From an uncultured Rhodospirillaceae bacterium (lineage in GTDB: Bacteria; Pseudomonadota; Alphaproteobacteria; UBA9219): DNA of 64,000 bases. The translations under genes and the position numbers were made by a program. Location: the NCBI GenBank assembly GCA_964390005.1, contig CAYMGM010000001.1:129839-193838 (forward strand), written 5' to 3'. The notes beneath the pieces are model-generated. The model was not told the origin of the DNA. It worked only from the letters and a program-made list of their open reading frames with translations, and did not search any database. Shown here piece by piece: positions 39,129 through 60,465 of this stretch (positions within the stretch are counted from its first letter, which is position 1; every line of letters starts with the position of its first letter).

Positions 39129-39134
39129 AGCAAG

Positions 39135-39776
39135 ATGTCAAAACTAATCATTGTAGGCGCGGGGGGCTTTGGCCTTGAGGTCGCCGCCTATGCCGAGGAC
39201 GCGCGCGCGGCACAAGCCGCGCAGCCCGAAATCATCGGCTTCTGCGATGACACAAAACCCAAAGGTGCGCAGCATGCGGGCTATCCCGTCATCGCGAACA
39301 CGGATGATCCCATTGATCCCACCGCGCTTTATATCTTGGCGGTTGGCTTTCCGGCTGCGCGGCGCGCGTTGGCTGAAAAACTGGCGGCTAAAGGGGCCCA
39401 GTTTCATACGCTGATCCACCCGCAAAGCTATGTCGCGCGGACGGCACGCCTTGCGCCGGGATGTATAGTTGTTCCGTTCGCGACGGTGGGGCCGATGGCC
39501 GTTTTGGGTCCGCACACAATGCTGAATTACCATGCGGTCTTTGGCCACGAAGCGCAGGCTGGTGATTTTTGCGTTTTATGCCCGTATGCCTGCGTCCACG
39601 GCACGGCTGTTTTAGAAGACGATGTCTTTATTGGCAGCGGCGGTTATGTCACGCGCGGCTTGCGTATTGGGCAAGGCTCGAAAATTGCCGCAAACGCTGT
39701 CGTTTATAATGATATCCCGCCGGGCGCGTTGGCGCTTGGCAATCCCGCCGTTTGCAGGAAGGAGCCGAACGCATGA
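39135..39776 (+). CDS. NeuD/PglD-family hexapeptide-repeat N-acyltransferase
   Basis: An N-terminal Rossmann-like IIVGAGGFGLEV is followed by left-handed beta-helix hexapeptide repeats (VFIGSGGYV, IGQGSKIAANAVV). 213 aa. Confidence 0.75.
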   Translation: MSKLIIVGAGGFGLEVAAYAEDARAAQAAQPEIIGFCDDTKPKGAQHAGYPVIANTDDPIDPTALYILAVGFPAARRALAEKLAAKGAQFHTLIHPQSYVARTARLAPGCIVVPFATVGPMAVLGPHTMLNYHAVFGHEAQAGDFCVLCPYACVHGTAVLEDDVFIGSGGYVTRGLRIGQGSKIAANAVVYNDIPPGALALGNPAVCRKEPNA

Positions 39777-40411
39777 AATATTCTTTTTCCATTTTGGCGG
39801 CTTTGGTTTTTCTGACGTCTCCGGCGTTCGCTCAGGGCACGACGGCAGCCGATCCTGAGGCGCGCCTGGCCGCTTGTCTGCAACGCGCCGAAGCCTTGCC
39901 CGATCAAACGAAGGTTGAAGCCGATGCATGGCTTAAGAAAGGCGGCGGCGATCGCGCGCAATTGTGCCGGGCTTATGCGCAGCTGCATCGCGGCGATTAT
40001 GTCTCGGCGGCGCAGGGGTTTTTGTTCCTTGCGCAAAAGCGCCCAAAAACAGACCATGTGCAGCGCGCGAAATTGCTTGAACAAGCAGGGCTTGCCTATA
40101 TGCAGGCGCATGAAGCTGGCCATGCCGAAAGTTCCTTTGCGGCGGCTTTGAAAGAAACGCCAGGGCAGGGGGATCTGCTTTACGACCGCGCCAACGCGCG
40201 CGCCGCTGGCGACAAGCTGTGGGAAGCTTTGGACGATCTGAAACTTGTTTTGAAGAAAGAACCCGAAAGGGTCGATGCCTTGCGCCTTTCGGGACATACT
40301 TGGATCAAGCTGGGGTACGAAAGCAAAGGCAAAGCCGATTTGCTGTTGGCCGAGCAATTGGCAACGGGCGGCGATCCGCGCGACAAAAAACAGGATAAGT
40401 CCGCGCCATGA
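39773..40411 (+). CDS. periplasmic TPR-like repeat protein
   Basis: Signal peptide MKYSFSILAALVFLTSPAFAQG, then helical TPR-like repeats. Its start ATGA overlaps the acyltransferase stop. The ORF track starts at 39752. Confidence 0.5.
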   Translation: MKYSFSILAALVFLTSPAFAQGTTAADPEARLAACLQRAEALPDQTKVEADAWLKKGGGDRAQLCRAYAQLHRGDYVSAAQGFLFLAQKRPKTDHVQRAKLLEQAGLAYMQAHEAGHAESSFAAALKETPGQGDLLYDRANARAAGDKLWEALDDLKLVLKKEPERVDALRLSGHTWIKLGYESKGKADLLLAEQLATGGDPRDKKQDKSAP

Positions 40412-41247
40412 TCGTGACGCGCTTTGCGCCAAGCCCGACGGGATATCTGCATCTCGGGCACGCTTATTCGGCTTGTCTGGCCTATGACTTGGCGCAGGAA
40501 AAGGGCGGGCGTTTTATCTTAAGGATTGAAGATATCGACCCCACGCGCTGCAAAGACATCTACGTCCAAGCGTTGCTTGAGGATTTAGCCTGGCTCGGCC
40601 TTGCTTGGGAGACGCCCGTTCGCCGCCAATCCGAACACCTGGCCGATTACGGCGCGGCGCTTGATCGTTTACAGGCGATGGGGCTTTTGTATCCGTGTTT
40701 TTGCACGCGCCAAGATATTCGCGCCGAGGTCGCGGCGGCTTTATCCGCGCCCCAAGGCCCCGATGGCCCTGTTTATCCCGGCGCTTGCAAGCCTTTGTCT
40801 CCCGATGAGGTTGCTGCGCGGCAGCAAGCCGGTATCCCTTTTTCGTGGCGGCTTGATATGGCGCGCGCCTGCCGGATGGCCCCCAGCCTGTCGTGGCAGG
40901 AAGAAAACCAAGGCCCGATTGCGGCGCGCCCCGAAGCTTTTGGCGATATTGTTTTGGCGCGTAAAGAATGCCCCACCAGCTATCACCTAAGCGTGACGGT
41001 TGACGATGCGCTTCAAGGCGTGACCGATATTGTCCGTGGCCAAGATTTGTTCGCGGCCACGGCCATCCATCGTTTGTTGCAGGTTTTGTTGGATCTTCCC
41101 GCGCCGCGCTATCATCATCACCGACTTTTATGCGGGCCCGACGGCAAACGCCTTGCCAAACGCGATCACGCCAAAGCCTTGCGCACATTACGCGCCGAAG
41201 GCCTGACACCCAGCGATGTTCGGCAGCTTTTCGTTACGGCAAAATAA
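40408..41247 (+). CDS. gluQ: glutamyl-Q tRNA(Asp) synthetase (truncated GluRS paralog)
   Basis: HLGH motif in TRFAPSPTGYLHLGHAYSA, an RIEDID motif and a KLAKRD (KMSKS-like) motif. 279 aa, with no anticodon-binding domain. Confidence 0.85.
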   Translation: MIVTRFAPSPTGYLHLGHAYSACLAYDLAQEKGGRFILRIEDIDPTRCKDIYVQALLEDLAWLGLAWETPVRRQSEHLADYGAALDRLQAMGLLYPCFCTRQDIRAEVAAALSAPQGPDGPVYPGACKPLSPDEVAARQQAGIPFSWRLDMARACRMAPSLSWQEENQGPIAARPEAFGDIVLARKECPTSYHLSVTVDDALQGVTDIVRGQDLFAATAIHRLLQVLLDLPAPRYHHHRLLCGPDGKRLAKRDHAKALRTLRAEGLTPSDVRQLFVTAK

Positions 41248-45930: not shown

Positions 45931-46178
45931 GAGACCCCTCCCTAGCTTTGTTACAGTTACCTATTATCCACCATTTCTCTTACGAAATGAATAAGAGAAC
46001 ATAAGTCATGCCTAGCCATTTGTAAAATAATGATATTTTTCAATATCAAAACACACATTTGTTGGTAAAAGCTGCGTGAATCAGGTTTAAAGCCCATGAT
46101 TCCTTGCGAAAAAAGGCGTTTTGTGCCAAAAAGTTGCTTGAAAAGGCTCCAGCAAAAAACAAAGAAAAAGGGAATTTC

Positions 46179-47285
46179 ATGAAAGTCGCCGTCGTTCACG
46201 AATGGCTGACCACAAAAGCGGGATCAGAATCTGTCATTGAACAAATACTGACCTTGTATCCGGAAGCCGATTTGTTTGTTTTAGTTGATTTTTTGCCCGA
46301 AGCGGATCGCGCTTTTCTGGCTGGCCACAGGATCAAAACATCTTTCATCCAGAACTTACCTTTTGCGCACAAAAAATACCGTTCTTATTTGCCGCTGATG
46401 CCGCTGGCGGTTGAGCAGTTTGATTTGTCGGGCTACGACCTTGTTATCAGCTCGTCGCATGCGGTGGCCAAAGGGGTGCTGACAGGCCCCGATCAAGTTC
46501 ATATTTCCTATGTTCACAGTCCCATTCGCTATGCGTGGGATCTTCAACACATCTATTTGCGCGAGTCAGGGCTTACCAAAGGCCTGCGCGGTATCTTGGC
46601 TAAATTGATTTTACATTATATGCGCCTGTGGGATTGCCGTACCGCTTGTGGCGTCGATCAGTTTGTCGCGAACTCAAACTACATCGCGCGGCGGATTAAA
46701 AAGGTCTATGGCAGGTCGGCGCAAGTTGTTTATCCGCCGGTCCATTTAGATAAGTATATTGCTGGCACGCAGCCGCGCGAAGATTTTTATTTGGCGGTGT
46801 CGCGCTTTGTGCCTTACAAAAAGATGTCGTTGATCGTCGAAGCTTTCACGCGCTTGCCTGATCGGCGCTTGATCGTCATCGGCGACGGCCCAGATTTGAA
46901 AAGCGCAAAAGAGCAAGCGAGCGCAAACGTGACCTTTCTTGGCTACCAAGCGCAAGATGTTGTGATCGATCACATGCAACGCGCCAAAGCCTTTGTCTTT
47001 GCGGCCGAAGAAGATTTTGGCATCGCCCCGGTCGAGGCGCAAGGCTGCGGCACGCCCGTGATAGCCTTTGGCCGCGGCGGCGCAACCGAAACGGTCGTTG
47101 ATGGTCAAACAGGCGTGTTGTTTCCCGAGCAAACGCCTGAATCCCTGATCGAGGCGATTAAAAAGTTTGAGGTCCTCGCGCCGCAACTCAAGGCGACAAC
47201 CATCCGTGAAAATGCCGAGCGTTTCAGCGTCGCACGTTTCAAGGAAGGCATTCAAAAGATCGTCGACGAAGCGATGAAAGCGTAA
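46179..47285 (+). CDS. glycosyltransferase family 4
   Basis: GT-B fold. The C-terminal EDFGIAPVEAQGCGTPVIA motif (E-x7-E). The start is placed at MKVAVVHEWL, whereas the ORF track gives 46104. Confidence 0.8.
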   Translation: MKVAVVHEWLTTKAGSESVIEQILTLYPEADLFVLVDFLPEADRAFLAGHRIKTSFIQNLPFAHKKYRSYLPLMPLAVEQFDLSGYDLVISSSHAVAKGVLTGPDQVHISYVHSPIRYAWDLQHIYLRESGLTKGLRGILAKLILHYMRLWDCRTACGVDQFVANSNYIARRIKKVYGRSAQVVYPPVHLDKYIAGTQPREDFYLAVSRFVPYKKMSLIVEAFTRLPDRRLIVIGDGPDLKSAKEQASANVTFLGYQAQDVVIDHMQRAKAFVFAAEEDFGIAPVEAQGCGTPVIAFGRGGATETVVDGQTGVLFPEQTPESLIEAIKKFEVLAPQLKATTIRENAERFSVARFKEGIQKIVDEAMKA

Positions 47286-47294
47286 CGGCCCCTT

Positions 47295-48380
47295 ATGCGT
47301 CTTCCCCTTTACATCAATGCGCGTTTTCTTGGCAAACCGATCACGGGCACGCAGCGTTTTGCGCATGAGATTATAGCTGCCCTCGATAAAAAAATAGGTG
47401 AGGGCGCACAAGTTTTCTCGAAGGTCGTGTTACTGGCGCCTTCTGGGACGCCGCAGCCGACGGGGCTTGAGCCTATTGGCTTTCAAACATGCGGCCATCT
47501 ACAAGGCCATTTGTGGGAGCAATGGGATTTGTGGCGTGCCAGCCATGACGGCCTGCTGCTCAGCCTGACGAATAGCGGCCCCGTGTGCCACCCGCGGCAT
47601 TTGGTCGTCATTCATGATGCGTTGGTTTACCGGTTGCCCGAAAACTACGCTTGGGCCTATCGCTTGTTTCACCAGAATCTTGGGCGTCTTTTGGCGCGTC
47701 GCGCGCGCGTTGGCACGGTCTCGGCCTTTTCGGCCTCTGAACTAGCCGCCGTCTTTCACGGCCAATCATCGGACTACCCCGTTTTTTACGATGGCTTCGA
47801 TCACATTCTGCGCCTGACGGAAGAGCCCGCCATCCTTGATCGCCTGAACCTGCGCGGTAAACGCTTTTTCCTTTTTGTCGGCTCGCACGTTCCCAACAAA
47901 AACCTAGCCCGCGCGATCCAAGCGTTTATGGCGCTGAAAGACGACACGCTTTCATTTGTGATTGTCGGCTCAACACAATCAAAGGTTTTTGCCGCGACGC
48001 AACTTCAACTACCACCGACGGTCTTGATGCCGGGGCGCTTGACGGATGGCGAGATCGTCGCGCTTTATCGTCATGCTTATGCGCTGGTTTTTCCAAGCTT
48101 GTACGAAGGTTTTGGTATTCCGCCGTTGGAAGCGTTGACGTTGGGCTGCCCCGTGATTGCCTCGCGCATCGCGCCGGTCCAAGAAGTGTGCGGCGAGGCT
48201 GCCAAATATTTTGATCCGTTAGATACCGCGGATATGGCGGCGCAACTGCGCGCGAGTCTTAATGATCCCGCCTGGCGCACAGCCTGTGTGGCAAAGGGTA
48301 AGCAGCGCTTGCCAAACTTCACATGGCGCGCAAGCGCCGAGAAAATATGGCAAGAATTGCTATTCATGAAGAAGGATTGA
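47295..48380 (+). CDS. glycosyltransferase family 4
   Basis: EGFGIPPLEALTLGCPVIAS, the GT4 E-x7-E motif. 361 aa. Confidence 0.8.
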   Translation: MRLPLYINARFLGKPITGTQRFAHEIIAALDKKIGEGAQVFSKVVLLAPSGTPQPTGLEPIGFQTCGHLQGHLWEQWDLWRASHDGLLLSLTNSGPVCHPRHLVVIHDALVYRLPENYAWAYRLFHQNLGRLLARRARVGTVSAFSASELAAVFHGQSSDYPVFYDGFDHILRLTEEPAILDRLNLRGKRFFLFVGSHVPNKNLARAIQAFMALKDDTLSFVIVGSTQSKVFAATQLQLPPTVLMPGRLTDGEIVALYRHAYALVFPSLYEGFGIPPLEALTLGCPVIASRIAPVQEVCGEAAKYFDPLDTADMAAQLRASLNDPAWRTACVAKGKQRLPNFTWRASAEKIWQELLFMKKD

Positions 48381-48385
48381 TGGTG

Positions 48386-49435
48386 ATGAAAAAAGAATTC
48401 ACTGGTGCCCGGTATGGTTTTATTGATGCCATTCGCGGGATAGCGGCCTTGCTCGTGATGCTACAACACTCGCTTTATTCCAGTGGCTTGCTTGGTGACA
48501 TCCATGGCCCTTTAACAGGCTTTATTCCAACGATGCTTGAGTTGGGCGAGACGGGGGTCGTTGCCTTTTTTCTTGTCTCAGGGTTTGTTATTCCGCTCAG
48601 TTTAGAAAAAACGGCAAACTTTAAAATGTTCTGGATACACCGTATTTTGCGTATTTATCCGCTGTATCTGTGCGTCTATTTTGTCAGTTTGGTTTTGCAC
48701 CTTGGAACTTTTGATATCTCAGGCTTTTCAGCGCACGTCGTCAATTTTCTATCGCATCTATTAATGATCCAGGAATATGTCAAACAACCTAATCTTGTCG
48801 GCGGGTCGTGGACGCTTTCGATTGAAATGATCTGGTATATCGGTCTTTCAGTTTTATTCTTGTTGGCCTTGAATAAAAAGCCGCGTTTGCTTGTCGCTTT
48901 AGCCGTTGCCGCTTCATTTTTGGCATGTGTCGTTTGCGCGTTTGGGCCTCACCTTCCTATGGGAAGACTTTCAATGCTGGTTTGTTGTGTGTTGGGTTTC
49001 GTTTGTTACCGTTATGGGAAAAGCGATTTATCCAGCCGCGAATTTTGCTTTTTGGCAGGGCTTTTAATCATTGCGATTGTTACAAACCTGATGACTGGAT
49101 TTTTGTTGTTTCCATCGGCATATCCCACAGCCAGTTTTGCAATGGTTCGAGGTTCTTGGTCTTTAGGTATTTTGATTTTTTTTATACCTTTTCTCTTCCG
49201 TCAATCGTCCATCTGGGACAACAGCCTTTTGTCTTTCCTTGGGAAAATAAGTTATTCGATCTATTTGGGGCACGGTGTTGTCTTGCACCTGCTTGAAGAT
49301 AGCCCGCTAACAGGGTGGTGGTTTATTGCCGCTGTTTTTGTATCGACAATTCTTGTTGCGAGTCTGTCCTACCGCTATATTGAGCAACCGCCCATTCAAT
49401 TCGGTAAAAAACTGAACTCTTTAAGGCAACTCTAG
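48386..49435 (+). CDS. acyltransferase family 3 membrane O-acyltransferase
   Basis: About 10 TM helices. The N-terminal FIDAIRGIAALLVMLQH motif is typical of acyltransferase-3 (OatA/OafA-like). Lower GC than the flanking genes. Confidence 0.75.
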   Translation: MKKEFTGARYGFIDAIRGIAALLVMLQHSLYSSGLLGDIHGPLTGFIPTMLELGETGVVAFFLVSGFVIPLSLEKTANFKMFWIHRILRIYPLYLCVYFVSLVLHLGTFDISGFSAHVVNFLSHLLMIQEYVKQPNLVGGSWTLSIEMIWYIGLSVLFLLALNKKPRLLVALAVAASFLACVVCAFGPHLPMGRLSMLVCCVLGFVCYRYGKSDLSSREFCFLAGLLIIAIVTNLMTGFLLFPSAYPTASFAMVRGSWSLGILIFFIPFLFRQSSIWDNSLLSFLGKISYSIYLGHGVVLHLLEDSPLTGWWFIAAVFVSTILVASLSYRYIEQPPIQFGKKLNSLRQL

Positions 49436-49556
49436 GTAAAATCGGAGTCTATGACGTCGGCAGGGCGCGGCCATAGCCAAGCGCGGTTACGTGGCGTTCG
49501 CTTTATAAATAAGGAACGATGACGGATATTTTTCTTCGATCGTTTTTTCTATATCT

Positions 49557-50492
49557 CTAACTTTCAAAGGAAGCTTTTTCTAAGATTTTGCTTGGGTGGC
49601 CTTTACCGCAAAGCTTGTCGCCTATGGCCATAAAATTTCCGCGTAAGCGCCCCCAATAATCGATATCGGGCCGCGGCGGACGAATGGATTTGATAATATT
49701 GGCCGCAAAGTTTCGTGCAATTTGCCGCAAAGCGGCTTTGGTGGGCATTGTCCCTTTTCCCATCAAATAAAGAGGATTGGCAACTTGGGAATACCCGAAC
49801 CGAAGGCCACTTGTTCGTCCCCCTGAGACCCCCATGTGAACGCCGCGGCAGTTTGGCGTTCGTACGACAGGGCCAAAGGCCAAGGCTTGGCCGGTATAGT
49901 CATAGTCTTCTTGCCAGCTATAAAGCGGAAGGTTTTCATCAAAACGACATTGCCGGATAACGGTATGGTTAAAAGCCATGTTGCAGCCATAGGCACAATC
50001 GACAAAAGATTCTTTTGTTGTATTGGCCCAGTGCTTTTCAGGAACGATGGTCCCGGCCAGATAGTTTGTCGCTTGTTCTTCGCTAAGGCCGCCAGTCATG
50101 ACGCCGTCAGCTAAGACACGTCCTGTCAGGCCGACGATATCGCCTTTGGCAAAACGATCAGCAGCCTTTTCGAGCCAGTCGTCGGCAGGGCGAAAATCGT
50201 CGTCAAAAAAAGCGCAAAAGAAGTCGCCTTTTGTCTCATCCAGAAAGCCGCGTTGACGTAAGGTCTGAATCCCATAATTGCGCTGGCATGTCAGACCGGC
50301 AACAGGAGAAAGAACGATGTTTCCAGCAAGATGCTTAAAAGCGGGATGGTCGCGGCATTCGAAGACATCCCTTTCTTCGCTGCCAACGACAACGACGCCA
50401 TGCGGAGCAAGTGTCTGGCGTTGTAGGTAATCCAGCAGGGTGCCCGTCTCTTTGGCACGTCCTTTGGTCGCGATAATAACGAAAGCGCGCAT
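49557..50492 (-). CDS. glycosyltransferase (GT-A fold, family 2-like)
   Basis: 311 aa. The N-terminus MRAFVIIATKGRAKE resembles GT-A, and FFDDDF is a DxD-like motif. Confidence 0.55.
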   Translation of the reverse strand: MRAFVIIATKGRAKETGTLLDYLQRQTLAPHGVVVVGSEERDVFECRDHPAFKHLAGNIVLSPVAGLTCQRNYGIQTLRQRGFLDETKGDFFCAFFDDDFRPADDWLEKAADRFAKGDIVGLTGRVLADGVMTGGLSEEQATNYLAGTIVPEKHWANTTKESFVDCAYGCNMAFNHTVIRQCRFDENLPLYSWQEDYDYTGQALAFGPVVRTPNCRGVHMGVSGGRTSGLRFGYSQVANPLYLMGKGTMPTKAALRQIARNFAANIIKSIRPPRPDIDYWGRLRGNFMAIGDKLCGKGHPSKILEKASFES

Positions 50493-50636
50493 AGTGCCGT
50501 CTCGATCTTTTGTTTCAGTATTTCTTATGTTATGAACAGGATCATCCGAGATGGCAAGTTCTCACTTTTCGAATGAAGATAAAAAGCGTGTCTTCAAAGA
50601 TTTTGGTTAATATTTTGTCCTTCGCTTAGACAAAAA

Positions 50637-52175
50637 TTGTGGATAATACAGATGCAACCCGAAATAAAACCTAAATTATCGCATCAAGTCGCGAAGGCAG
50701 GCAGCCTGACAGTCTTGGGGAAATTGTTGGGACGCGGGCTCGATTTTATCACGTTGATCGTCTTATCTCACATATTAACGCCCAGCGATTTTGGCTTAAC
50801 GGCCCTTGCGATGACGTCAGTGACAATTGCTGAAAGCGTGACATCGTTACCGTTGACGGCGGTTTTAGTTCGAGAAGAGGCGCCAACCAAGGCCATGTTT
50901 GATACGGCCTTTACCTTGGCTTTTCTCCGCGGGTGCGTTCTGGCTGCTTTTCTAAGCGGCATTGCTTTTGTCATGGCACAGATTTATGGCGAGCCTCGCT
51001 TGACGCCCTTGGTCTGCGCCTTGTCGTTCGCGCCGATTTTTCGAGGCCTTCAAAGTCCGCATATGGTGCGCTTTGTAAAGGACATGGATTTTAGACGTGA
51101 TGCCTCGCTAGAGATTGTGGGGAAAGCGGGGGCTTTGATCGTTGCATCGACGCTTGCCTTGTCAACACGTAGCTATTGGTCGATTGCGATGGCGACAATA
51201 ACGACGCCATTTATTATGAATGTTCTTTCATATTTTTATGCGCCCTATAAACCCGCCTTTAGCCTAGCCGAATGGCCGCTTTTTCGCGCGATCGTCGGGT
51301 GGAACAGTTTGACGCAGCTTATTCTCTCATTAACCTGGCAATCTGATAGGTTGTTGCTTGGCTACTTTATCCCGAAGGCTAATCTTGGTCGCTATACAAT
51401 GGCCAACGATTTGTCCAGCATAGGGATTCAGGCTCTTGTCGTTCCATTGGATCAGCCGCTTCTCGTGGCTTTTTCCAAACGTTTTGATGATGCAAAAGAA
51501 ACGCTTGCCGCAACATATTTAAAAAGCACAAATGCAGTCCTGACAATAGCCGGCCCCTTTTTTCTTGGTCTTTCTCTATTAGCACAACCCATTGTACGTC
51601 TTGTGCTCGGCGAAGCGTGGAGCGAAACCGGACGGTGGTTGCACTGGATCGCACTTTTGAACCTTTCGTTGCTTCCTTTTTATCATATGAACAGCTTGGC
51701 TCTCGCCGTTGATCAGGCCCGTATGACAACAAGGCGTACCTTTGGCGAATTTCTTGTTCAAATACCAGTTGTCTTATGGGGAAGTAGATATTTGGGTGTC
51801 ACGGGGGCTCTGATCGGGCGCAGCATAACGCGCGCCGTTTCTATTCTTATCAGCCTTATAACAGTGCGTGAATTGATTGACGTTTCGATAAAAGGTCAAC
51901 TGATGGCCATGCATCGAACCATGATTGCTTTGTTGACGATGAGCGGCGTTCTTCTTTTAACGCGTGATTTTGTAGCGACGTCGTCAACAGTCATGATGGT
52001 TTTGTCGCTTGGCGTCGTTGCGGTTATCTCGGGCCTCTCATATTATTTGTGCCTTTACGCTTTATGGTTGGCAGAGGGGCGACCAGACGGTTGTGAGAAA
52101 ATTGCGGTTTCGCGGTTGTTAAGTCTTGTCTCTTATCTTTCGAGCAAATGTCTTAAAAAGCGCAAATTATTATAA
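50637..52175 (+). CDS. polysaccharide biosynthesis flippase (Wzx/MOP superfamily)
   Basis: 512 aa and about 12-14 TM helices. The N-terminus (KAGSLTVLGKLLGRGLDFITLIVLSHIL) is typical of the MOP exporter family. Confidence 0.75.
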   Translation: MWIIQMQPEIKPKLSHQVAKAGSLTVLGKLLGRGLDFITLIVLSHILTPSDFGLTALAMTSVTIAESVTSLPLTAVLVREEAPTKAMFDTAFTLAFLRGCVLAAFLSGIAFVMAQIYGEPRLTPLVCALSFAPIFRGLQSPHMVRFVKDMDFRRDASLEIVGKAGALIVASTLALSTRSYWSIAMATITTPFIMNVLSYFYAPYKPAFSLAEWPLFRAIVGWNSLTQLILSLTWQSDRLLLGYFIPKANLGRYTMANDLSSIGIQALVVPLDQPLLVAFSKRFDDAKETLAATYLKSTNAVLTIAGPFFLGLSLLAQPIVRLVLGEAWSETGRWLHWIALLNLSLLPFYHMNSLALAVDQARMTTRRTFGEFLVQIPVVLWGSRYLGVTGALIGRSITRAVSILISLITVRELIDVSIKGQLMAMHRTMIALLTMSGVLLLTRDFVATSSTVMMVLSLGVVAVISGLSYYLCLYALWLAEGRPDGCEKIAVSRLLSLVSYLSSKCLKKRKLL

Positions 52176-53098
52176 CCCCACATCAGGATCAGTCGACCGG
52201 TGATCGCTGGCGACGAAGAAAAAGACCCTTTTAAAATATGAACTATAGCTTGTAGAGATTGTCGAAGATCAAATCTTTTCAAAGCCTGATTGCGCCGAAA
52301 AACGCGCAGTAAAATGTAGCCTTCTTTGGTCGCCGGAGATAGGCGAAGCTGACGAAGCTTGTTCTCAAGCAAGTACTTGTTCACCTCGATAATTTCCGAT
52401 GAAACGGCGCTGCGTTCTTGCTCTTCTGTGCGCGTCATTGAAATGTTTGCCCCGTGCAGACGATATTTCAGAACAGGAACATTGATGTCGTGGATAAGGC
52501 CGTAGCGACTGATGCGAATGTACATGTCATAATCTTCGGCATGAGGATAGGCTGATGAATACCCTCCCGCTTTTTTCAAAGCATCGGTGCGCAGCATGAC
52601 AAGGGGGTGAAGAGCAGTTTTGATAATCGGCGGAAACACAGTCAAATCTGTCTGTTCATGCTGTTGTCGCGGACTTTTAAAGTCGGCCTTTGAGGCAGGT
52701 TGGGTTTGTCCGTTTGCGTCAATCGTGATCGGCTTTCCGCCGACAAGAACGACATCGGGGTGTTCTTTTAGATAAGAAACTTGGACGGCGAACCTGTCTG
52801 GCAGTGAAATATCGTCAGCATCCATGCGAGCCGTAAAGGTTCCGCGTGCGATGGCCAAGCCAGCATTTAGCGCTGCGACGATACCGGCGTTTTCCTGTGA
52901 TAAAACGCGAATGCGTTTGTCCCGCTTTTGATAGTCATCGATAATTTTATCTGAACCGTCCGTACTTCCATCGTTAACAATAATGAGTTCAAAATCATCA
53001 AGCGATTGATCAAGAATAGATTGAATGCTTTCGGCTAAATAGGCCTGACCATTATAAACAGGAAGCAAGCATGAGACAGTGATCGTGGGCGATGTCAT
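52133..53098 (-). CDS. glycosyltransferase family 2
   Basis: VSCLLPVYNGQAYLAESIQSILDQS...LIIVNDGSTDGS...RMDADDIS are the classic GT2 motifs. The start is placed at MTSPTITVS, whereas the ORF track gives 53263. Confidence 0.8.
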   Translation of the reverse strand: MTSPTITVSCLLPVYNGQAYLAESIQSILDQSLDDFELIIVNDGSTDGSDKIIDDYQKRDKRIRVLSQENAGIVAALNAGLAIARGTFTARMDADDISLPDRFAVQVSYLKEHPDVVLVGGKPITIDANGQTQPASKADFKSPRQQHEQTDLTVFPPIIKTALHPLVMLRTDALKKAGGYSSAYPHAEDYDMYIRISRYGLIHDINVPVLKYRLHGANISMTRTEEQERSAVSSEIIEVNKYLLENKLRQLRLSPATKEGYILLRVFRRNQALKRFDLRQSLQAIVHILKGSFSSSPAITGRLILMWGYNNLRFLRHLLER

Positions 53099-53241
53099 GA
53101 CAAAGATCGTTAATGTTTTTGCTCTCTTGGAGGGCGAAGATAACAAATAATATATTGCACTTAGCCATTGAATAGGCAATCTTGTTTTGTGGATTTGAAG
53201 GGATTTTATATTCCTTCTTTTTATTGTAAGGGAGTAAGCAG

Positions 53242-54186
53242 ATGAATATGCAGGATTTGTCAATGCAATTGGACCATTGCACAGATCTATTAGAAGGGCC
53301 TGTCGTTTATCTTGATTATCCCGTTCATAATAATATTGGCGATATCCTCATTTGGCTTGGGGCGCAGAAACTATTAAAAAGAAATCATATACAAGTGCTG
53401 GGCTCTTTTGAGCTGCGCTTAGGTTTCTATGCGAAACATTTATTGTCGTCTTGTACGACGATATGTATGCATGGGGGAGGGAATCTTGGTGATCTCTATC
53501 CGCGGCACCAGTCTTTTCGTGAAAAGATCATTCAAAAATATCCGGATAAAAAAATTGTCATTTTTCCTCAGACTGCCTGTTTTAGTAGTGCAGAGGCTCT
53601 ACAGAAAACAGCCGACATCTTTTTAGCGCACAAAAATCTCCATATTTTTCTAAGAGATCAAAACTCGTTTCAAACGTTGCAAGAGAAGGGAATTCCGAAC
53701 CTCCATCTTTCTCCTGATACAGCCCATGCTCTTTGGCCAATACGCCTTGGCGCGTTTTATCAAAAGGACAGCAAGCTCTATTTTTTCAGGCGCGACAAGG
53801 AAAAGACGCAAACGCCTTTTGATTGCGATGAGAAAGATGCATTCGATTGGAAAGACTGTATTCGTGGGTTCGACGAAGCTTTATTTAATTTTGGTCTTCA
53901 GTATCATCGTGTCGATGCGCGTTTGGCGGGCAGTCTTTTGAAGTCGAGTTGCCTATGGAATTATGTCTCGCAACGTCTTCTCGCCTCTGCTGCCGGGGTT
54001 TATGCAAACCACGAAACCGTCATTACAAACCGCCTGCATGGGATGATTTTTGCGGCGCTCACCGGAACAAAATGCATAGCCTTTGATAATTCGTACGGTA
54101 AGCTGTCTAGCTATTACGACCTTTGGCTTAAAGACATAGATAACCTTAGCTTTATCCAATCAGGTGGGGTTCAACCGCGTCTTTGA
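53242..54186 (+). CDS. polysaccharide pyruvyl transferase family protein
   Basis: NIGDILIW, GGGNLGD and NRLHGMIFAALTGTKCIAFDNSYGK match the CsaB/WcaK pyruvyl-transferase family. 314 aa. Low GC. Confidence 0.7.
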   Translation: MNMQDLSMQLDHCTDLLEGPVVYLDYPVHNNIGDILIWLGAQKLLKRNHIQVLGSFELRLGFYAKHLLSSCTTICMHGGGNLGDLYPRHQSFREKIIQKYPDKKIVIFPQTACFSSAEALQKTADIFLAHKNLHIFLRDQNSFQTLQEKGIPNLHLSPDTAHALWPIRLGAFYQKDSKLYFFRRDKEKTQTPFDCDEKDAFDWKDCIRGFDEALFNFGLQYHRVDARLAGSLLKSSCLWNYVSQRLLASAAGVYANHETVITNRLHGMIFAALTGTKCIAFDNSYGKLSSYYDLWLKDIDNLSFIQSGGVQPRL

Positions 54187-55624
54187 TCGTTGGGGCCAAA
54201 TGGTTTTATCTCTCTTAGCTTTTCTGATCATCTTGTGCGGACTGGCCTCGGATGGGCTTGTGGTGCGTCTTTTGTTTATTATGCCATCGTTTGCTGCGAT
54301 GGCCGTTCTTCCGCCATCTTGGCTGGGGGGCGTCAATATAACGCCAGGCAGTATGACTGCATTGATCTTTTCCTTGCGTTACATGACAAAGCCAGGCGCG
54401 TTTCATGGTGCCGTCGCCGCTTGCTTGAATAGAAAAAAACTGGGCTGGCTTTTCGTCTTTTACCTGGTCGCTTTTGCCGGAGCCCTTTTTCTTCCCCGGT
54501 TGTTCGCGGGGCGCATTCTAACTTATCAGCTCAGTACGGCAAAACTCAGCTATGTGATGCCAACAGGAACAAATTTCACACAAGCCTTGTATCTATTTTT
54601 GTCAGTTATGACGGCCATCATGGTATCCGTGACGATTACAAAACGTCCAAAATTCGGAGATTTGTTGTTGAAAGGGTTTTATGCTGGCGGTTTGGCCGTT
54701 ATTGGGACAGGGCTTCTTGATATTACGGCCAACCTGCTTGGACAAGGGGCTTTGCTGAAGGCTTTTTACACAGCCGAATATGGGTATTCAGCCGGGGCCA
54801 TTAATGGGTCACGCCGTGTCTTAGGGTTGACGCCTGAGCCTTCTACCTTTGGTTCGCACGCTGTCGCTTTTGCGGCGTTGCTTCTTTTCTTCGGACCGGC
54901 GTATGCAACAAAAATAGAAAAGCGCAACGCGTTTCTTTGTGGCCTTGGGTGCGCGGTAATGGCGTTTCTTTCGCTTTCATCGACAGCGTATGCCGCGATG
55001 TCTGTCGCTTTAGGTTTGTTCGCCCTTTACAGTGTTAAAGGTTATTCGAGCGATGGCAAAATTATTCGGCAATCCGTCGCCAACAAGCTGCTTATGGGGC
55101 TCTTTGTTTTTGTGTTGGTGGGGCTGTTCGTTTTGAGCTTCAGTGGCGCGTTCGACTATATGATGAATATGTTCGATACGCTGCTTTTTAAAAAGCAGTA
55201 CACCACGTCATATTTAGAAAGATCAAGTTGGACGACGACGGGGCTAGAAGCTTTTTTTCAGTCATGGGGGGTGGGCGTTGGCGTCGGATCTGTCCTTACC
55301 TCTAATTTTTTTGTTAATATTCTTGCAAGTACTGGCATTTTGGGCGCGATGCTATTTGCTCTTTTCTTGATGTCCTTTTTCACGGCGCGCGTCCCCATGA
55401 ACAATGGGCGAGCATCGATTTTTATCGGTGCGGCTAAAAGAAGTTATCTGCCCATTATGGTTGGCGCCTTTTTTGCGGGAACGACACCTGATTTTGGCAT
55501 TGTTCCCGCTGTGCTGTTCGGCTTGGTTTCTGGCTTTATAACCCCTATTGGTGGAGATTCTCATCGGTCTTTGCCGTTGCAAAAAAACAAAACTTATTTG
55601 CGAAAACCGTTAGAGAGAAAATAG
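54164..55624 (+). CDS. polytopic membrane protein, Wzy-type polymerase or O-antigen-ligase-like
   Basis: 486 aa with more than 10 TM helices and a larger loop. It lies in a polysaccharide locus between the pyruvyl transferase and GT genes. The family is not confirmed. Confidence 0.45.
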   Translation: MGFNRVFDRWGQMVLSLLAFLIILCGLASDGLVVRLLFIMPSFAAMAVLPPSWLGGVNITPGSMTALIFSLRYMTKPGAFHGAVAACLNRKKLGWLFVFYLVAFAGALFLPRLFAGRILTYQLSTAKLSYVMPTGTNFTQALYLFLSVMTAIMVSVTITKRPKFGDLLLKGFYAGGLAVIGTGLLDITANLLGQGALLKAFYTAEYGYSAGAINGSRRVLGLTPEPSTFGSHAVAFAALLLFFGPAYATKIEKRNAFLCGLGCAVMAFLSLSSTAYAAMSVALGLFALYSVKGYSSDGKIIRQSVANKLLMGLFVFVLVGLFVLSFSGAFDYMMNMFDTLLFKKQYTTSYLERSSWTTTGLEAFFQSWGVGVGVGSVLTSNFFVNILASTGILGAMLFALFLMSFFTARVPMNNGRASIFIGAAKRSYLPIMVGAFFAGTTPDFGIVPAVLFGLVSGFITPIGGDSHRSLPLQKNKTYLRKPLERK

Positions 55625-55644
55625 GCGTTCTTGATTTCTAGAGA

Positions 55645-55920
55645 TCAAGCAAAAACCCCGACGACGGACATTCCTACCTCTGGCGAAACAATAGCTATCG
55701 TCGTGGGGAGGTCGTTTGAAAAATCACTGTCGCTGCGAATGCAAGTGTAATAAAGACTTGGATCGCCAGCTCCTGGCAACAGGCTTTCGTTGCCGTTTTC
55801 GTCCGTTATGGTTTGTTCGGCGCGACCCTTTTGGATCGGGATATAATTTTTAAAACTTGCCACGAAGTTTTCTAAAAGAGCTTCATTATCACAAGATAAA
55901 TATGTGTCGATATAAGCCAT
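55645..55920 (-). CDS. hypothetical protein (AT-rich, phage-like triplet member)
   Basis: 91 aa. It is the last of three tightly packed minus-strand ORFs with GC clearly below the surrounding genes. Confidence 0.3.
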   Translation of the reverse strand: MAYIDTYLSCDNEALLENFVASFKNYIPIQKGRAEQTITDENGNESLLPGAGDPSLYYTCIRSDSDFSNDLPTTIAIVSPEVGMSVVGVFA

Positions 55921-55927
55921 CTTTCAC

Positions 55928-56911
55928 CTAAACGCTTTGGATTCTTTTAAGACAGAGTCTGTTTAAAACAGAAGGATCAACGGTATAGGATCCACTGCTG
56001 ACGCTTATGTCTTGGGTGCTGTCATCGTCAAACGTGCAGCGTATCGTTGAAATACCCGATGGGATTGTAAAGGAAAGCTGATCTGTGGCACGTGTGACGG
56101 CGCTTCCATTTGTGGGAATGTATGATGTGGCAACAGAGCCAACTTCATACTGCTCTCCCCATATATTTATGTTACCTGATGATCCTAGATATGACGGTAA
56201 AGAGCCGTTGGTATCTAAATTATTTGTCAGGGCGTTATAGAAAGTAGAATGGTTTCCTGAAGTGTTTTCTTTGGCCTTTACTGAAATTCTATAATTTGAA
56301 TTTCCTACCGCTTCAATGCTTGGTACAGCAACTGTAAAAGCGTTGTGGCCGACCACACCGGCACTAACATCAAAATTTGCATAATAAAGTTCAGTGTACG
56401 ACCCTGCATATGCTTTCATTTGCAGAATATACTCAGAACCCGCTCTTGCAAACACGCTCATGATTATATCATTGTAGTTCATAGCTATAAGCGGCGGTTT
56501 TGCATAGTGAACTGAAGACCCTGTTCCTTCATTAAGATTTTTGAAATAGGTCATCCCGTCTGGAGAAAGCAGAGACGAATCTGACGCGGTAACGCCAGAA
56601 AGGGCCCAATTCGTAGGAGGATTTGAGTTTGTAAATAAGTTTGTTCTTTGAGGCTCAATCAGTAACCCGCTAGCTTCCCACAATCCCGTCGAGGTATTGT
56701 AGTCATAATTAAATCTAGGCGTATCTACCGAAGCGGTCCGCATGACGCCGCTACTGTCGAAATAGGTTCCCGTGCTGGCGCGAGAGAAGCGACAATCGGT
56801 CGGCAGGATTCCGCTTGTAAAGGACAGATCCAACGCAGGCGGTTGGGGCGCGGCGCTCTTATGCGTCTTGTCAAGTAAAAGAAGCATCGCCATATTAAAC
56901 CGCGCGGACAA
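55928..56911 (-). CDS. phage tail-fibre-like protein
   Basis: 327 aa, Ser/Thr/Asn/Gly-rich. The LIEPQRTNLFTNSN and YIPTNGSAVTRATDQLSF motifs resemble conserved segments of phage tail-fibre / host-specificity proteins. No signal peptide. Confidence 0.4.
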   Translation of the reverse strand: MSARFNMAMLLLLDKTHKSAAPQPPALDLSFTSGILPTDCRFSRASTGTYFDSSGVMRTASVDTPRFNYDYNTSTGLWEASGLLIEPQRTNLFTNSNPPTNWALSGVTASDSSLLSPDGMTYFKNLNEGTGSSVHYAKPPLIAMNYNDIIMSVFARAGSEYILQMKAYAGSYTELYYANFDVSAGVVGHNAFTVAVPSIEAVGNSNYRISVKAKENTSGNHSTFYNALTNNLDTNGSLPSYLGSSGNINIWGEQYEVGSVATSYIPTNGSAVTRATDQLSFTIPSGISTIRCTFDDDSTQDISVSSGSYTVDPSVLNRLCLKRIQSV

Positions 56912-57260
56912 TCAATTTCAGGGTCGAAGCTGTCGCCTGCAAGACGGGGCTTGCTGCCGTACCTGACCTGATTTTCAGGTACTGCAAGGACGCAAAGCCT
57001 TTAGGATCAAGCATGATGCAACTAGAGGCGGTGGGAACGGCTGTAATTTCGCTACCGTCCTGGTCAATAAGGCTGTACCAGTTGGTGCCATTATCAGGGG
57101 ACATTTGAAAAGTCAAAGAAGCGTTTGTCCAGTTGGCGGGAATGGCAACGCCAAACAAACGCAATCCGCCAAGATCGATCGTGTTTGTTATGGATGCGCT
57201 GGCGTTGATCGTAACGGGAAGCGCTTCCCAAGCGGAGACGCAGGTGTCTTTCAGTGACAT
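56895..57260 (-). CDS. hypothetical phage-structural-like protein
   Basis: About 121 aa from MSLKDTCVS. It overlaps the tail-fibre-like gene start by 17 bp. AT-rich. Confidence 0.3.
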   Translation of the reverse strand: MSLKDTCVSAWEALPVTINASASITNTIDLGGLRLFGVAIPANWTNASLTFQMSPDNGTNWYSLIDQDGSEITAVPTASSCIMLDPKGFASLQYLKIRSGTAASPVLQATASTLKLIVRAV

Positions 57261-57466
57261 TTGAAATCCTTTCCAAGCATAAAAAAAGCGGCCCCTGAAA
57301 AGGGCCGCGTGCCGCGAGATATTTTTGTTTTTGTTCCTGTAAGTGTTCCGAATGCGCGTCAAAGCAAAAAAGGCGCAAGGAACCTGTCTTTAGTCAATAC
57401 GCGAAAGCGCGGATCTCGTCAAGGGAAAAATCCTACATTTAGACGAATGTTCAGAAAAATTCTACT

Positions 57467-58612
57467 TTAAACGAGTGCCTTGGCATAAATGGCTTGCTGA
57501 TGATCGGGGGCGCATGTTTCCCATCCGGCTTTGGCTATCGCGTCGAAAAAACGTGGGTTCTCATACAATTGCCGCATAGCTTTGGCGGTCGCATCAATGT
57601 CGGGATCGGCCCATGTGACTGTGCCATAGATACCGCTTTGATCCTTCATGGTAACAAGCTGATAGGGAACAAGAAGAGCATTCTCAGGCGACATAAAGTC
57701 CATATTGCCAGACCAAGCCGTTGCAATCGTCGCAAGACCAGCGATACGGGCCTCAAGAAGAGGAAGGCCAAAACCTTCGGCGCGGTGTAGCGACACATAG
57801 ACATGGGCATCGGTCATGATTTTTTCGATTTCGGCGCGCGTCAAGGTTTCGCGGATAAGATGGATGCGATCATCGCCAGCAACGGATTCGATGAATTGCG
57901 CTATTTCAGGTATTGTTGATTGGCCTTGTAACTTCACGACAAGGCGAGCGTTGTCTTCTTTTGAAAACGCTTTTTGAAAAGCCGCGACGACGGCAGCTGG
58001 ATTCTTTCGCGTGAGGCCTGATCGTGCATCGGCCATGGTCAAAAAGCATAAAGGCTCTTGATCGGCATGCCATTGACGGGGAGACGGGCCGCGATCCATG
58101 CGGACATGAGGCACAACGCGGATCGGATCGGCGTAAAGTTTGCCAAGTCCAAGGGCCGCAAAACGGCTCGGCGTCCAAATTTCATCCCAAATGCCTGTAT
58201 AGACGGGCCATCCGGCAGGCGGATCGGGCAGTTCCCAAGCAAAGTATCCAATACGCCTTTGGTTTTTTAAAACCTTTCGCAAAGGCCAGGCCAGTTGCAG
58301 AAACTCGGGGGCTGCGCAGTGAAAGATAAAAATGCCATCCTTTGGACAATCAATCTGTTTAAAGGGGTTGCGAATAGCTGACGAAATATCGACTTTACGA
58401 ACCTTATAGCCCAACCGTTCAAAAGCAATTGCATGATAGTTGGCCCCATTGGTTAATCCGTTTTGGACCGCAAAACGGCAAACGATGTTAATGGGGGTAT
58501 CAAGTGTTAGGGGAAGTGCGGCGGGGCTTGGCCGTTGTAGCTTTGACAAGGCGATCCGATTAAAAATGGAAAAATAGAGGCCCTTGGCCCATTTTTTTAA
58601 TTGTGACATCAA
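57467..58612 (-). CDS. glycosyltransferase family 4
   Basis: RAEGFGLPLLEARIAGLATIAT is the E-x7-E motif. 381 aa. Confidence 0.7.
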   Translation of the reverse strand: MMSQLKKWAKGLYFSIFNRIALSKLQRPSPAALPLTLDTPINIVCRFAVQNGLTNGANYHAIAFERLGYKVRKVDISSAIRNPFKQIDCPKDGIFIFHCAAPEFLQLAWPLRKVLKNQRRIGYFAWELPDPPAGWPVYTGIWDEIWTPSRFAALGLGKLYADPIRVVPHVRMDRGPSPRQWHADQEPLCFLTMADARSGLTRKNPAAVVAAFQKAFSKEDNARLVVKLQGQSTIPEIAQFIESVAGDDRIHLIRETLTRAEIEKIMTDAHVYVSLHRAEGFGLPLLEARIAGLATIATAWSGNMDFMSPENALLVPYQLVTMKDQSGIYGTVTWADPDIDATAKAMRQLYENPRFFDAIAKAGWETCAPDHQQAIYAKALV

Positions 58613-58712
58613 ATAAGTCCATTTCTATGGTTTTGTTAGCGCTTTAGACGCCTTGACCTTGGCGTTATCTTGGCACAGCATAAAGAAAAAGCCAATTCGG
58701 AAAGGCCTCACA

Positions 58713-60041
58713 ATGAAAACGACAGTTCAACGTATTTCAATTTACGCTTTTTTTGTTTTTAGTCTTTTGAGCGCCAGTTCTGTTTGGGCAGCCGAGCCCG
58801 TGCGCGCTCTTAGCGCCGATGCTTTTTTGAATTCTCTCGGGGTCATTACGCATGTGGCGCAAGGGTATAATCCCCGCCTTTATATTGACCCCCTGCGTTT
58901 TCTTGGTGTCCGACAAATTCGCGATGGTTCCAAAAATCTTTCAGGCATCGTCACGTTGCATGAGAAAACGGGGGTGCGCGTTGCCCTTATCGGGGCAAAG
59001 ATTCCAGAAGTGATTAGTTCAGCCCGTACGTTGGCGGCGCGGGATATGTTGCTTGCGATTGAAGGCCCGAACGAACCGAACAATTTTCCTATCACTTATC
59101 AGAATAGCGTTGGTGGAGGAAAGACGGGCTCATGGGCACCGGTCGCTTTTTATCAGCGCGACCTGTATGCAGCCGTCAAAGCGGATCCTGTTTTAAAGGA
59201 TTATCCCGTTTTTCATGTATCGGAAGGCGGCGCGGAAATAGACAATGTTGGCTTGCAGTTTTTGACGATACCTGAAAACGCGGGCACTTTATTGCCAGCA
59301 GGAACTATTTTTGCCGATTATGCGAACGCGCATAACTATGTTTGTGGAAACGGCAATCGTTATGATGACAATCAAGCATGGAATGCGGCCGATCCTGTTT
59401 TAAACGCACGTTGGGATGGGCTGTATGGCTTGTATGGCCGGACGTGGCTTCGCCATTATACAGGTTATACAAATGAACAGTTGATGACGTTACCGCGCGT
59501 TACGACAGAGACGGGATGGGGAACGGGCCCTCGGGGGGCGAGCGAAGACGTGCAAGGCAAAGTTCTTGTGAATACCTATTTGGCTCAGTTCAAACGCGGC
59601 TGGACTTATACCTTTGTTTATGAACTTGGCGAAGGTGAAGGCGGCGGTGGCAATTATGGGCTGTTCCATAAAGATTGGACGCCAAAATTAGCTGCGACCT
59701 ATATTCACAACATGACGTCGATTTTAGCCGATACAAAACCGGTCTTGAAGCCAGGAAGTTTGGCTTACAGCTTATCCAATCAACCCGCGACGGTTCACGA
59801 TCTTCTTTTGCAAAAAAGCGATGGGGTCTTTTATTTGGTTGTTTGGGGCGAAAAAGTCTCAGGCAGCGACGAGGTACGCGTTACTTTGGATAAGCCCGCG
59901 GCTGTTATCGATGTTTTTGATGTTACGCTGAGCGACGGTCCGCAGCAGCGTCTTAAGAACCAGTCTGAGGTTCCCTTAACGCTATCGGATCACGCGCTGA
60001 TTTTAAAGATTTCGAACAGCAAGAGCACGCCGAGCAAATAA
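58713..60041 (+). CDS. secreted glycoside-hydrolase-like protein
   Basis: Signal peptide MKTTVQRISIYAFFVFSLLSASSVWA. TIM-barrel-like conserved acidic positions (LAIEGPNEPNN, TTETGWG) are reminiscent of GH clan A enzymes. Confidence 0.45.
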   Translation: MKTTVQRISIYAFFVFSLLSASSVWAAEPVRALSADAFLNSLGVITHVAQGYNPRLYIDPLRFLGVRQIRDGSKNLSGIVTLHEKTGVRVALIGAKIPEVISSARTLAARDMLLAIEGPNEPNNFPITYQNSVGGGKTGSWAPVAFYQRDLYAAVKADPVLKDYPVFHVSEGGAEIDNVGLQFLTIPENAGTLLPAGTIFADYANAHNYVCGNGNRYDDNQAWNAADPVLNARWDGLYGLYGRTWLRHYTGYTNEQLMTLPRVTTETGWGTGPRGASEDVQGKVLVNTYLAQFKRGWTYTFVYELGEGEGGGGNYGLFHKDWTPKLAATYIHNMTSILADTKPVLKPGSLAYSLSNQPATVHDLLLQKSDGVFYLVVWGEKVSGSDEVRVTLDKPAAVIDVFDVTLSDGPQQRLKNQSEVPLTLSDHALILKISNSKSTPSK

Positions 60042-60306: not shown

Positions 60307-60334
60307 TGGTTGGGGCGGGAGGGATCGAACCTCC
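60307..60334 (-). repeat. 28-bp direct repeat of the tRNA-Gln 3' end (partial tRNA copy, att-like)
   Basis: TGGTTGGGGCGGGAGGGATCGAACCTCC is identical to 60391-60418. It is followed by the hairpin TGTCGGCC-TTT-GGCCGACA. No 5' half of a tRNA is present. Confidence 0.85.
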
Positions 60335-60390: not shown

Positions 60391-60465
60391 TGGTTGGGGC
60401 GGGAGGGATCGAACCTCCGCATGGCGGAATCAAAATCCGCTGCCTTACCGCTTGGCTACGCCCCA
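60391..60465 (-). tRNA. tRNA-Gln (anticodon UUG)
   Basis: The reverse complement reads UGGGGCGUAGCCAAGCGGUAAGGCAGCGGAUUUUGAUUCCGCCAUGCGGAGGUUCGAUCCCUCCCGCCCCAACCA. This is the characteristic tRNA-Gln sequence with a U1-A72 pair and anticodon loop UUUUGAU. Confidence 0.85.

Follow-up and report, generated by a model that had tools for sequence, protein, structure and literature searches.

The 64-kb stretch of DNA that was analysed (the window) contains a low-GC polysaccharide island in which three small genes lie on the minus strand. In the following, the 121-aa protein is called the base and the 321-aa protein the fibre, the 91-aa protein is termed orf91, and the loci compared are referred to by L numbers. 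The features of the locus are:

46104..60041, no strand assigned, low-GC island of the Wzx/Wzy polysaccharide type that hosts the three genes
57369..57400, minus strand, promoter-like motif GTATTGACTAAAGACAGGTTCCTTGCGCCTTT, a weak copy of GTATTGACA-N13-TTGCGTC located 139 nt upstream of the base ATG
57280..57308, minus strand, terminator-like hairpin GCGGCCCTTTTCAGGGGCCGC with a 9-pair stem and a T-run behind it, situated in the leader downstream of the motif and ahead of the base ATG
57274..57267, minus strand, Shine-Dalgarno sequence GGAAAGGA preceding the 121-aa gene
56895..57260, minus strand, 121-aa gene (base), ORF from ATG
56911..55928, minus strand, longer call of the fibre ORF, 327 aa from TTG
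55928..56893, minus strand, fibre gene, 321 aa from the ATG at 56893, start as in the database
55645..55920, minus strand, orf91 (91-aa gene), starting 7 nt past the fibre stop codon

The island is bounded by sdh genes and a tRNA-Gln gene and shows an att-like repeat of the tRNA-Gln 3' end. Its GC content (46-60.1 kb) is 0.479 compared to 0.545 in the first 46 kb of the window. It carries genes for three GT4 and two GT2 proteins, an acyltransferase, a Wzx flippase, a pyruvyl transferase and a secreted 462-aa protein as well as a weak Wzy-like match. The fibre gene has the Wzy-like gene, the pyruvyl transferase gene and a GT4 gene as its neighbours.

An earlier note on this DNA had described three tightly packed minus-strand ORFs, and these are present with the sizes it gave (121, 327 from the TTG, and 91 aa). 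The stop codon of the 121-aa gene and the fibre ATG are separated by 1 nt (TAAnATG), a junction also present in seven other loci, and the 121-aa gene is predicted to be translationally coupled to the fibre gene. Its start at the ATG at 57260 is supported because 40 homologues are about 121 aa long; an alternative 155-aa reading would run through the strong terminator-like hairpin. Judged by their conservation, the three ORFs are real genes, each of them with a conserved family. The same note had assigned to them the lowest GC content of the window, which is wrong in detail, since about 6% of equal-sized windows fall below the value of 0.465 found for the triplet. All of these lie inside the same island, and the 121-aa gene alone has a GC content of 0.519. 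As far as inspection of the N-termini can tell, signal peptides are lacking as reported. Likewise, the reported lack of an integrase and of other prophage genes holds in the annotated regions and in a phmmer screen that compared 44 reference proteins with every window ORF of 60 aa or more, the first 34 kb being covered by this screen only. The screen detected neither phage genes beyond the triplet nor tailocin sheath, tube or baseplate genes in the window.

The best match of the fibre among solved structures is Rcc01080 of RcGTA, the gene transfer agent (GTA) of Rhodobacter capsulatus (phmmer E 1.8e-22, PDB chain 6tb9_F3). The alignment covers residues 25-293 of the window fibre and residues 28-289 of the 325 residues of Rcc01080, by which the 321-aa protein is a near-full-length homologue of the head-spike fibre Rcc01080/GhsB. 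Rcc01080 was located experimentally as a head-spike fibre and not as a tail fibre, and the RcGTA spike consists of a base pentamer and one fibre held by its N-terminus (PMC7296036). The RcGTA fibre binds the capsule (PMC10218006). PHROG families of the 'tail protein' type also match the window fibre (8e-49), as do phage proteins annotated as tail fibres with about 30% identity (e.g., RcapMu gp58). The phage homologues of the fibre thus carry tail annotations, which is a counterpoint to a position on the head. Pfam returned nothing for any of the three triplet proteins. Together, the PHROG, Rcc01080 and phage tail-fibre matches support the previous suggestion that the protein is phage-structural and receptor-binding. 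The segments TNLFTNS and YIPTNGSAVTRATDQLSF, which had been singled out as fibre-like, fall in the two most conserved blocks of the fibre family and are aligned to the matching blocks of Rcc01080.

The AlphaFold model of the fibre (pLDDT 89.6) is all-beta, with low confidence for the N-terminal 20 residues, and shows a beta-sandwich resembling carbohydrate-binding modules (CBMs) and lectins. A beta-helix, a catalytic fold or another glycanase fold is absent from the model, and we rejected the depolymerase role that had been listed as an option. The closest solved fold, a further counterpoint to a position on the head, is the baseplate protein gp46 of Pseudomonas phage Pa193, which differs in being a 503-504-aa baseplate component (baseplate wedge 2) of a myovirus. 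CBM61, CBM4, CBM16 and CBM22 are among the fold relatives; these are modules of glycoside hydrolases, whereas the window fibre has no catalytic domain. Conservation in the family is concentrated at residues 21-100 and 241-320, and the central part is variable. The N-terminus (MAMLLLLDK) forms a hydrophobic stretch that we propose to act as a plug. Of 17 fibres encoded next to a base gene, most have 3-5 hydrophobic residues after the start, and a polar linker comes next. The Gly-alternating motif of the Rcc01080 N-terminus is absent from the window fibre.

The base is a member of a tight family (about 121 aa, 46-66% identity) from alphaproteobacterial metagenome-assembled genomes. Its model (pLDDT 90.8) shows a jellyroll/discoidin-like sandwich, and the structural neighbours include the pentameric YomS/XepA and capsid-surface proteins; Rcc01079 (GhsA), the base protein of the RcGTA spike, is not among the neighbours listed. 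The likeness to YomS/XepA, to a capsid protein of Agrobacterium phage 7-7-1 and to the HFTV1 turret protein gp30 is at the level of the fold (8-17% identity), and discoidin and C2 domains score equally well against the model as the virus-surface jellyrolls. According to an exhaustive profile search, the domain is much more widespread, being found in 6,196 representatives (E ≤ 0.001). Neither the 121-aa nor the 91-aa protein has a match in PHROGs, a tblastn search with the 121-aa protein against 50,697 phage records gave no match, and sequence and profile searches of the PDB with both families gave nothing meaningful. A profile of 23 members of the 121-aa family retrieved no Rcc01079 chain from the PDB at E ≤ 10, and hhalign assigned the family a probability of 0.4% against Rcc01079 and of 0.1% against RcapMu gp57. 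The profile search and hhalign thus detect no homology to Rcc01079, and the presence of a small jellyroll gene directly upstream of the fibre gene is best described as an analogy to Rcc01079, not as membership in its family. Two other candidates were discarded: the 'Gp80' protein of L002 has no similarity to the 121-aa protein and no PDB match either, and a 121-aa ORF located just past the end of the window is unrelated to the base. In GTA-like clusters (see below), a homologue of the base gene comes immediately behind the capsid and decoration genes, and a capsid-binding role is proposed from this gene position and the fold class only.

The orf91 family has the conserved signature MIDTYL...GVWA. 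Homologues follow the fibre gene in the detached loci L011, L014, L017 and L023 and are found inside the clusters L019 and L025 and, weakly, L038 (E 0.003). The protein has no Pfam, PHROG or PDB match, and a relationship to Rcc01079 was tested with the result that the two are unrelated. It might be an accessory protein, perhaps for assembly.

Homologues of the three genes occur in two settings among related uncultured alphaproteobacteria. In the first setting, they are part of compact clusters of the RcGTA-like type, located on chromosomes or viral contigs, with the gene order terminase, portal, S78 protease, capsid, 132-aa gene, base, fibre, orf91 and head-tail connector, followed by a head-completion gene, DUF2460 (g12), g13, g14, g15, DUF2793 and lysozyme. 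The L002 capsid matches the RcGTA protein Rcc01687 with an E value of 1.2e-80, the capsids of the in-cluster relatives are 71-78% identical, and the 132-aa protein resembles a capsid decoration protein. Upstream of the chromosomal cluster L038, housekeeping-type genes are found. Some clusters carry only part of the spike gene set. Its place is the same in every GTA-like cluster examined, after the capsid/decoration genes and ahead of the head-tail connector gene. In the second setting, base and fibre genes, with or without orf91, are detached from any such cluster and located beside polysaccharide genes. Besides the window, at least nine further loci show this arrangement (L004, L007, L010, L011, L013, L016, L017, L021, L023). 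The commonest families among 117 neighbouring ORFs of 13 detached loci were glycosyltransferases, Wzy, Wzx, exosortase EpsH/EpsI and sugar epimerases, and no phage family was found among the 25 commonest. The detached bases form their own clade, apart from the in-cluster bases. A further genome combines a detached base (L015) with an in-cluster base that lacks a fibre (L024).

Using a profile of six in-cluster capsids, we found a capsid of the host itself, P0213, which is 77% identical to the L002 capsid. P0213 is recorded on a contig of 735,216 bp, as is every window protein that was looked up, and P0213 and the triplet occur in the same two sequencing samples. The capsid cluster is located neither in the 64-kb window nor in the approximately 8.6 kb past its end. 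In the retrieved 7.9-kb piece of this cluster (L036), the gene order is portal, S78 protease, capsid, 132-aa gene, connector, HCP, DUF2460 (g12), g13, g14 and g15. At the site where the relatives carry the three spike genes, L036 has a 66-nt hairpin-containing gap, and no homologues of base, fibre or orf91 are present in the piece. Since L036 lacks the spike genes and the triplet resides in the island, the host capsid cluster misses exactly the genes that the island provides. By its sequence, the cluster is homologous to the structural cluster of RcGTA (HK97-type capsid, portal, protease and g12-g15), and the structural genes appear to be spread over several loci, namely the island and the capsid cluster, as is characteristic of RcGTA-like systems; split in this way, the element would be unable to transfer itself. 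A tailocin remnant, one of the roles considered in the earlier note, does not agree with a partner cluster that encodes an HK97-type capsid, a portal and a protease, and was rejected. No tail-tube or tape-measure gene was found in the retrieved piece of L036, and because of this the particle may be atypical or defective. In L036, L002 and L025, the DUF2460 (g12) gene directly follows the head-completion gene, and L038 has a 137-aa Phage_tail_2 gene and no gene of tape-measure size. The g8-g11 tail genes (terminator, tube, tape measure) could be located elsewhere in the genome.

We also compared the regions upstream of the base genes. A motif matching the one in the window, as defined by an exact TATTGAC or ATTGACA anchor, is present 100-416 nt upstream of the base gene in 15 of 15 detached loci examined. 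A PWM trained on 12 detached-locus sites only also found it at the starts of GTA-like clusters, i.e., L002/L028 (score 31.8), L030 (30.6) and L038 (21.5 and 20.3). Shuffled loci mostly scored 10-17, one of them reaching 21.6. The score of the window motif was reached by 13 of 20,000 shuffles of the 206-nt intergenic region and is unexceptional across the whole window. A hairpin with a T-run between the motif and the ATG was found in 11 of the 15 detached loci compared to 9.8% of random 150-nt stretches, and in ten loci 23-36 nt separate the end of the hairpin from the ATG. In the window hairpin, seven of the nine pairs are G-C. In L007, L014 and L021, the leader hairpin cannot be the terminator of the upstream gene, because in these loci that gene is divergent. 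No CtrA-type box (TTAA-N7-TTAA or half-site) was found upstream of any base gene, and no Rfam family matches the leader. Transcription of the spike genes would thus start from a promoter motif common to GTA-like clusters and read through the leader terminator, and the need for this read-through suggests antitermination control. A conserved promoter followed by an intrinsic terminator ahead of structural genes, with conserved bases between the two hexamer-like blocks of the promoter, is also known from lambda Q at PR'-tR' and from Caulobacter GafYZ; this likeness is one of layout only. GafZ bypasses terminators in CcGTA (PMC11150451).

Base and fibre differ in their conservation. The base was the more conserved protein in 66 of 66 locus pairs from 12 detached loci, with a mean identity of 55% compared to 31% for the fibre, whose most variable stretch comprises residues 101-240. 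In the closest pairs, dN/dS of the base was 0.10-0.23, indicating purifying selection, and the amino acid divergence of the fibre was three to four times that of the base. This contrast is the pattern that would be expected for a conserved adaptor combined with a diversifying receptor-binding protein. The contig from the second sample is 100% identical to the window and hence uninformative on selection.

In our view, the triplet is probably the detached spike module of an RcGTA-like GTA, or of a similarly domesticated phage-like particle, whose other structural genes are located elsewhere on the 735-kb contig. If such particles are produced, the 121-aa jellyroll protein would bind to the capsid, probably as a pentamer on the vertices, and one 321-aa fibre would be anchored to it via the short hydrophobic N-terminus. 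The variable lectin-like beta-sandwich of the fibre would then bind the extracellular polysaccharide of the Wzx/Wzy locus on recipient cells; the polysaccharide of the island is presumed to be the spike receptor. Among the roles listed in the earlier note, a GTA-type fibre or domesticated receptor-binding protein fits best, and the part that has to be revised is the assignment to the tail, because the homologue Rcc01080 is a head-spike and not a tail fibre. It might nevertheless be argued that the proteins belong to the same GTA-like particle and form a tail or baseplate fibre with its adaptor. We consider this unlikely, since Rcc01080, the only experimentally located homologue, sits on the head, and since every GTA-like cluster examined has the genes between the capsid/decoration and connector genes, ahead of its tail genes; moreover, these clusters already carry g15-type and DUF2793 distal tail genes.

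Rather improbable, in our opinion, is a function in the polysaccharide biology of the cell itself, i.e., as a lectin, matrix protein or processing factor independent of any particle. The repeated location of the pair beside polysaccharide genes and the CBM-like fold of the fibre would agree with such a function. It is opposed by the lack of a signal peptide (by inspection only) and of a catalytic fold in the fibre model, by the presence of the same three genes inside capsid-encoding clusters, by the absence of exactly these genes from the host cluster, and by the promoter motif shared with cluster starts. A reading of the triplet as an inert leftover, either of a prophage or of cargo brought in with the island, appears very improbable. 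Its reading frames are intact, purifying selection acts on the base, and the detached bases group in a single clade. In addition, 15 diverged loci have kept the same operon architecture together with the promoter motif and the leader hairpin; these properties outweigh the low GC content of the island, its position by tRNA-Gln with the att-like repeat, and the fact that other phage genes were not detected in the window. Base-like domains are so widespread (6,196 representatives) that the spike might serve another particle, such as a helper phage or satellite, instead of the RcGTA-like cluster of this contig. This, too, we regard as having very little probability, since the host cluster lacks the genes exactly where its relatives carry them, and since the in-cluster relatives have capsids of 71-78% identity, the host capsid being 77% identical to that of L002.

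The interpretation as a detached head-spike module agrees with RcGTA in several respects. The fibres are homologous over almost their full length (321 versus 325 aa), the fibre gene is immediately preceded by a gene for a small beta-sandwich protein, the fibre N-terminus is hydrophobic (in the window fibre, the first 20 residues are modelled with low confidence), the spike genes lie outside the main structural cluster and by polysaccharide genes, and the capsid of the partner cluster is RcGTA-like. On the other hand, the window base (121 aa) shows no detectable relationship to Rcc01079 with its 84 aa, the anchor consists of 4-5 contiguous hydrophobic residues instead of I-A-L-G-L-G-L-G-L, and the window has orf91 as a third conserved gene. 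Furthermore, the window genes are located inside the polysaccharide locus, whereas those of R. capsulatus precede it; the host is a member of an uncultured lineage of alphaproteobacteria, and the partner clusters lack a recognisable tape-measure gene, the host copy also a tail-tube gene. In R. capsulatus, rcc01079-rcc01080 are located immediately upstream of the capsule receptor genes and are co-regulated with them, and no homologue of rcc01080 could be identified in the other genomes of Rhodobacterales that were examined (PMC5026251).

The linkage of GTA spike genes to capsule receptor genes has so far been known from one organism, R. capsulatus (PMC5026251). Its recurrence in an uncultured, distant lineage, across a dozen genomes or more whose polysaccharide gene sets differ, would suggest a general rule, which, if true, would mean that GTAs tie their receptor-binding protein to the 'self' polysaccharide and thereby direct transfer towards kin. 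The location of the spike genes inside the polysaccharide island implies that receptor-binding protein and receptor could be inherited and exchanged together. As a tentative extension, to which we give somewhat less than even chances, the head-spike operon might have moved clade-wide into exopolysaccharide loci and been kept in the regulon by the promoter and an antitermination leader. It would have a base from a large, as yet undescribed jellyroll family and belong to a particle perhaps built without a tape measure and, in this host, also without a tail tube; glycan identity and transfer targeting would then form one heritable unit for kin-directed exchange. The promoter motif, the leader terminator and the new base-protein family could serve as handles to find GTA accessory loci in metagenomes, and the complementary presence and absence of genes between cluster and detached locus could be used in the same way.

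A related arrangement is found in Rhodobacter phage RcapMu, where a small protein (gp57) precedes a fibre of about 326 aa (gp58) that is about 30% identical to the fibre of the window; 'tail fibre' proteins of RcWaterboi, rV5-like phages and cyanophages can be grouped with this pair as likenesses. In contrast to the window genes, gp57/gp58 are encoded in the genome of an infectious phage, where they close the tail module, and gp57 belongs to the Rcc01079 family and not to the 121-aa family. In one temperate phage (locus L026), the base-like gene is also located at the end of the tail module.

Polysaccharide genes stand not only around the spike operons of relatives but in one locus (L010:9150-17211) also between spike genes. 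There, the gene for the 121-aa jellyroll protein (base) is followed by two glycosyltransferase genes and unlabelled ORFs, then by a 534-aa ORF and the homolog of the 91-aa protein gene (orf91). Because the glycosyltransferase genes separate base from the 534-aa ORF and the orf91 homolog, the spike operon of this locus appears to be interrupted by inserted polysaccharide genes. At a distance of up to 8 kb from the detached spike operons (13 loci), five ORFs matched exosortase EpsH and five matched EpsI (DUF3485). As judged from these matches, the neighboring genes point to exopolysaccharide systems of the PEP-CTERM/exosortase type.

L007:19394-20369, example of exosortase-type neighbor genes in the locus of a relative
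Window 58653-60041, plus strand, 462-aa protein with a putative N-terminal signal sequence (judged by eye) and an EGPNEPN motif

The 462-aa protein gave no match in Pfam or PDB. In two other loci (L009 and L013), a homolog of it directly precedes the base gene on the upstream side. This protein could be a glycanase of the polysaccharide locus.

Next to the polysaccharide island, the end of a tRNA gene is repeated.

Window 60391-60465, minus strand, tRNA-Gln
Window 60307-60334, direct repeat of the last 28 nt of tRNA-Gln

The duplicated 3′ end lies 56 nt downstream of the tRNA gene, on the side of the low-GC island, and resembles an att-type scar. The opposite end of the island yielded no copy matching the 28-nt repeat. 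A second set of genes that may modify sugars or lipids lies upstream of sdh (window 34637-41247); the three of its ORFs that were examined include a PglD-like acetyltransferase and a LuxC-type acyl-CoA reductase.

In the RcGTA-like clusters of the clade, including that of the host itself (L036), the g12-type (DUF2460) gene directly follows the head-completion gene.

L036:3691-5247, stretch with the head-completion and g12-type genes
L002:11142-12782, the same stretch
L025:9067-10632, the same stretch
L038:13687-15682, the same stretch

No tape-measure gene was recognizable in any of the four clusters and usually no tail-tube gene, a Phage_tail_2 gene of 137 aa being present in L038. The clade's particles may have a very short tail, or the missing tail genes may be located elsewhere. 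The L038 cluster, in which no large-terminase gene adjoins the portal gene, contains two copies of the promoter-like motif (L038:6818-8178), one 5′ of a 254-aa gene and one 5′ of the portal gene. In the host cluster, the site of the spike genes in relatives corresponds to a 66-nt gap (L036:3625-3690), in which a GC-rich hairpin precedes a stretch rich in T.

The 121-aa jellyroll family has no description in Pfam or PHROGs, and 6,196 cluster representatives with this domain were found in metagenomes (e.g., P0288, P0289, P0353). Carriers include multi-copy proteins, one of which (2,081 aa) has 18 matched stretches. A base-like 121-aa gene (within L026:8774-13373) also ends the tail module of a 46.8-kb temperate-phage contig with integrase and lysozyme, and in the tree it forms a branch adjoining the detached clade.
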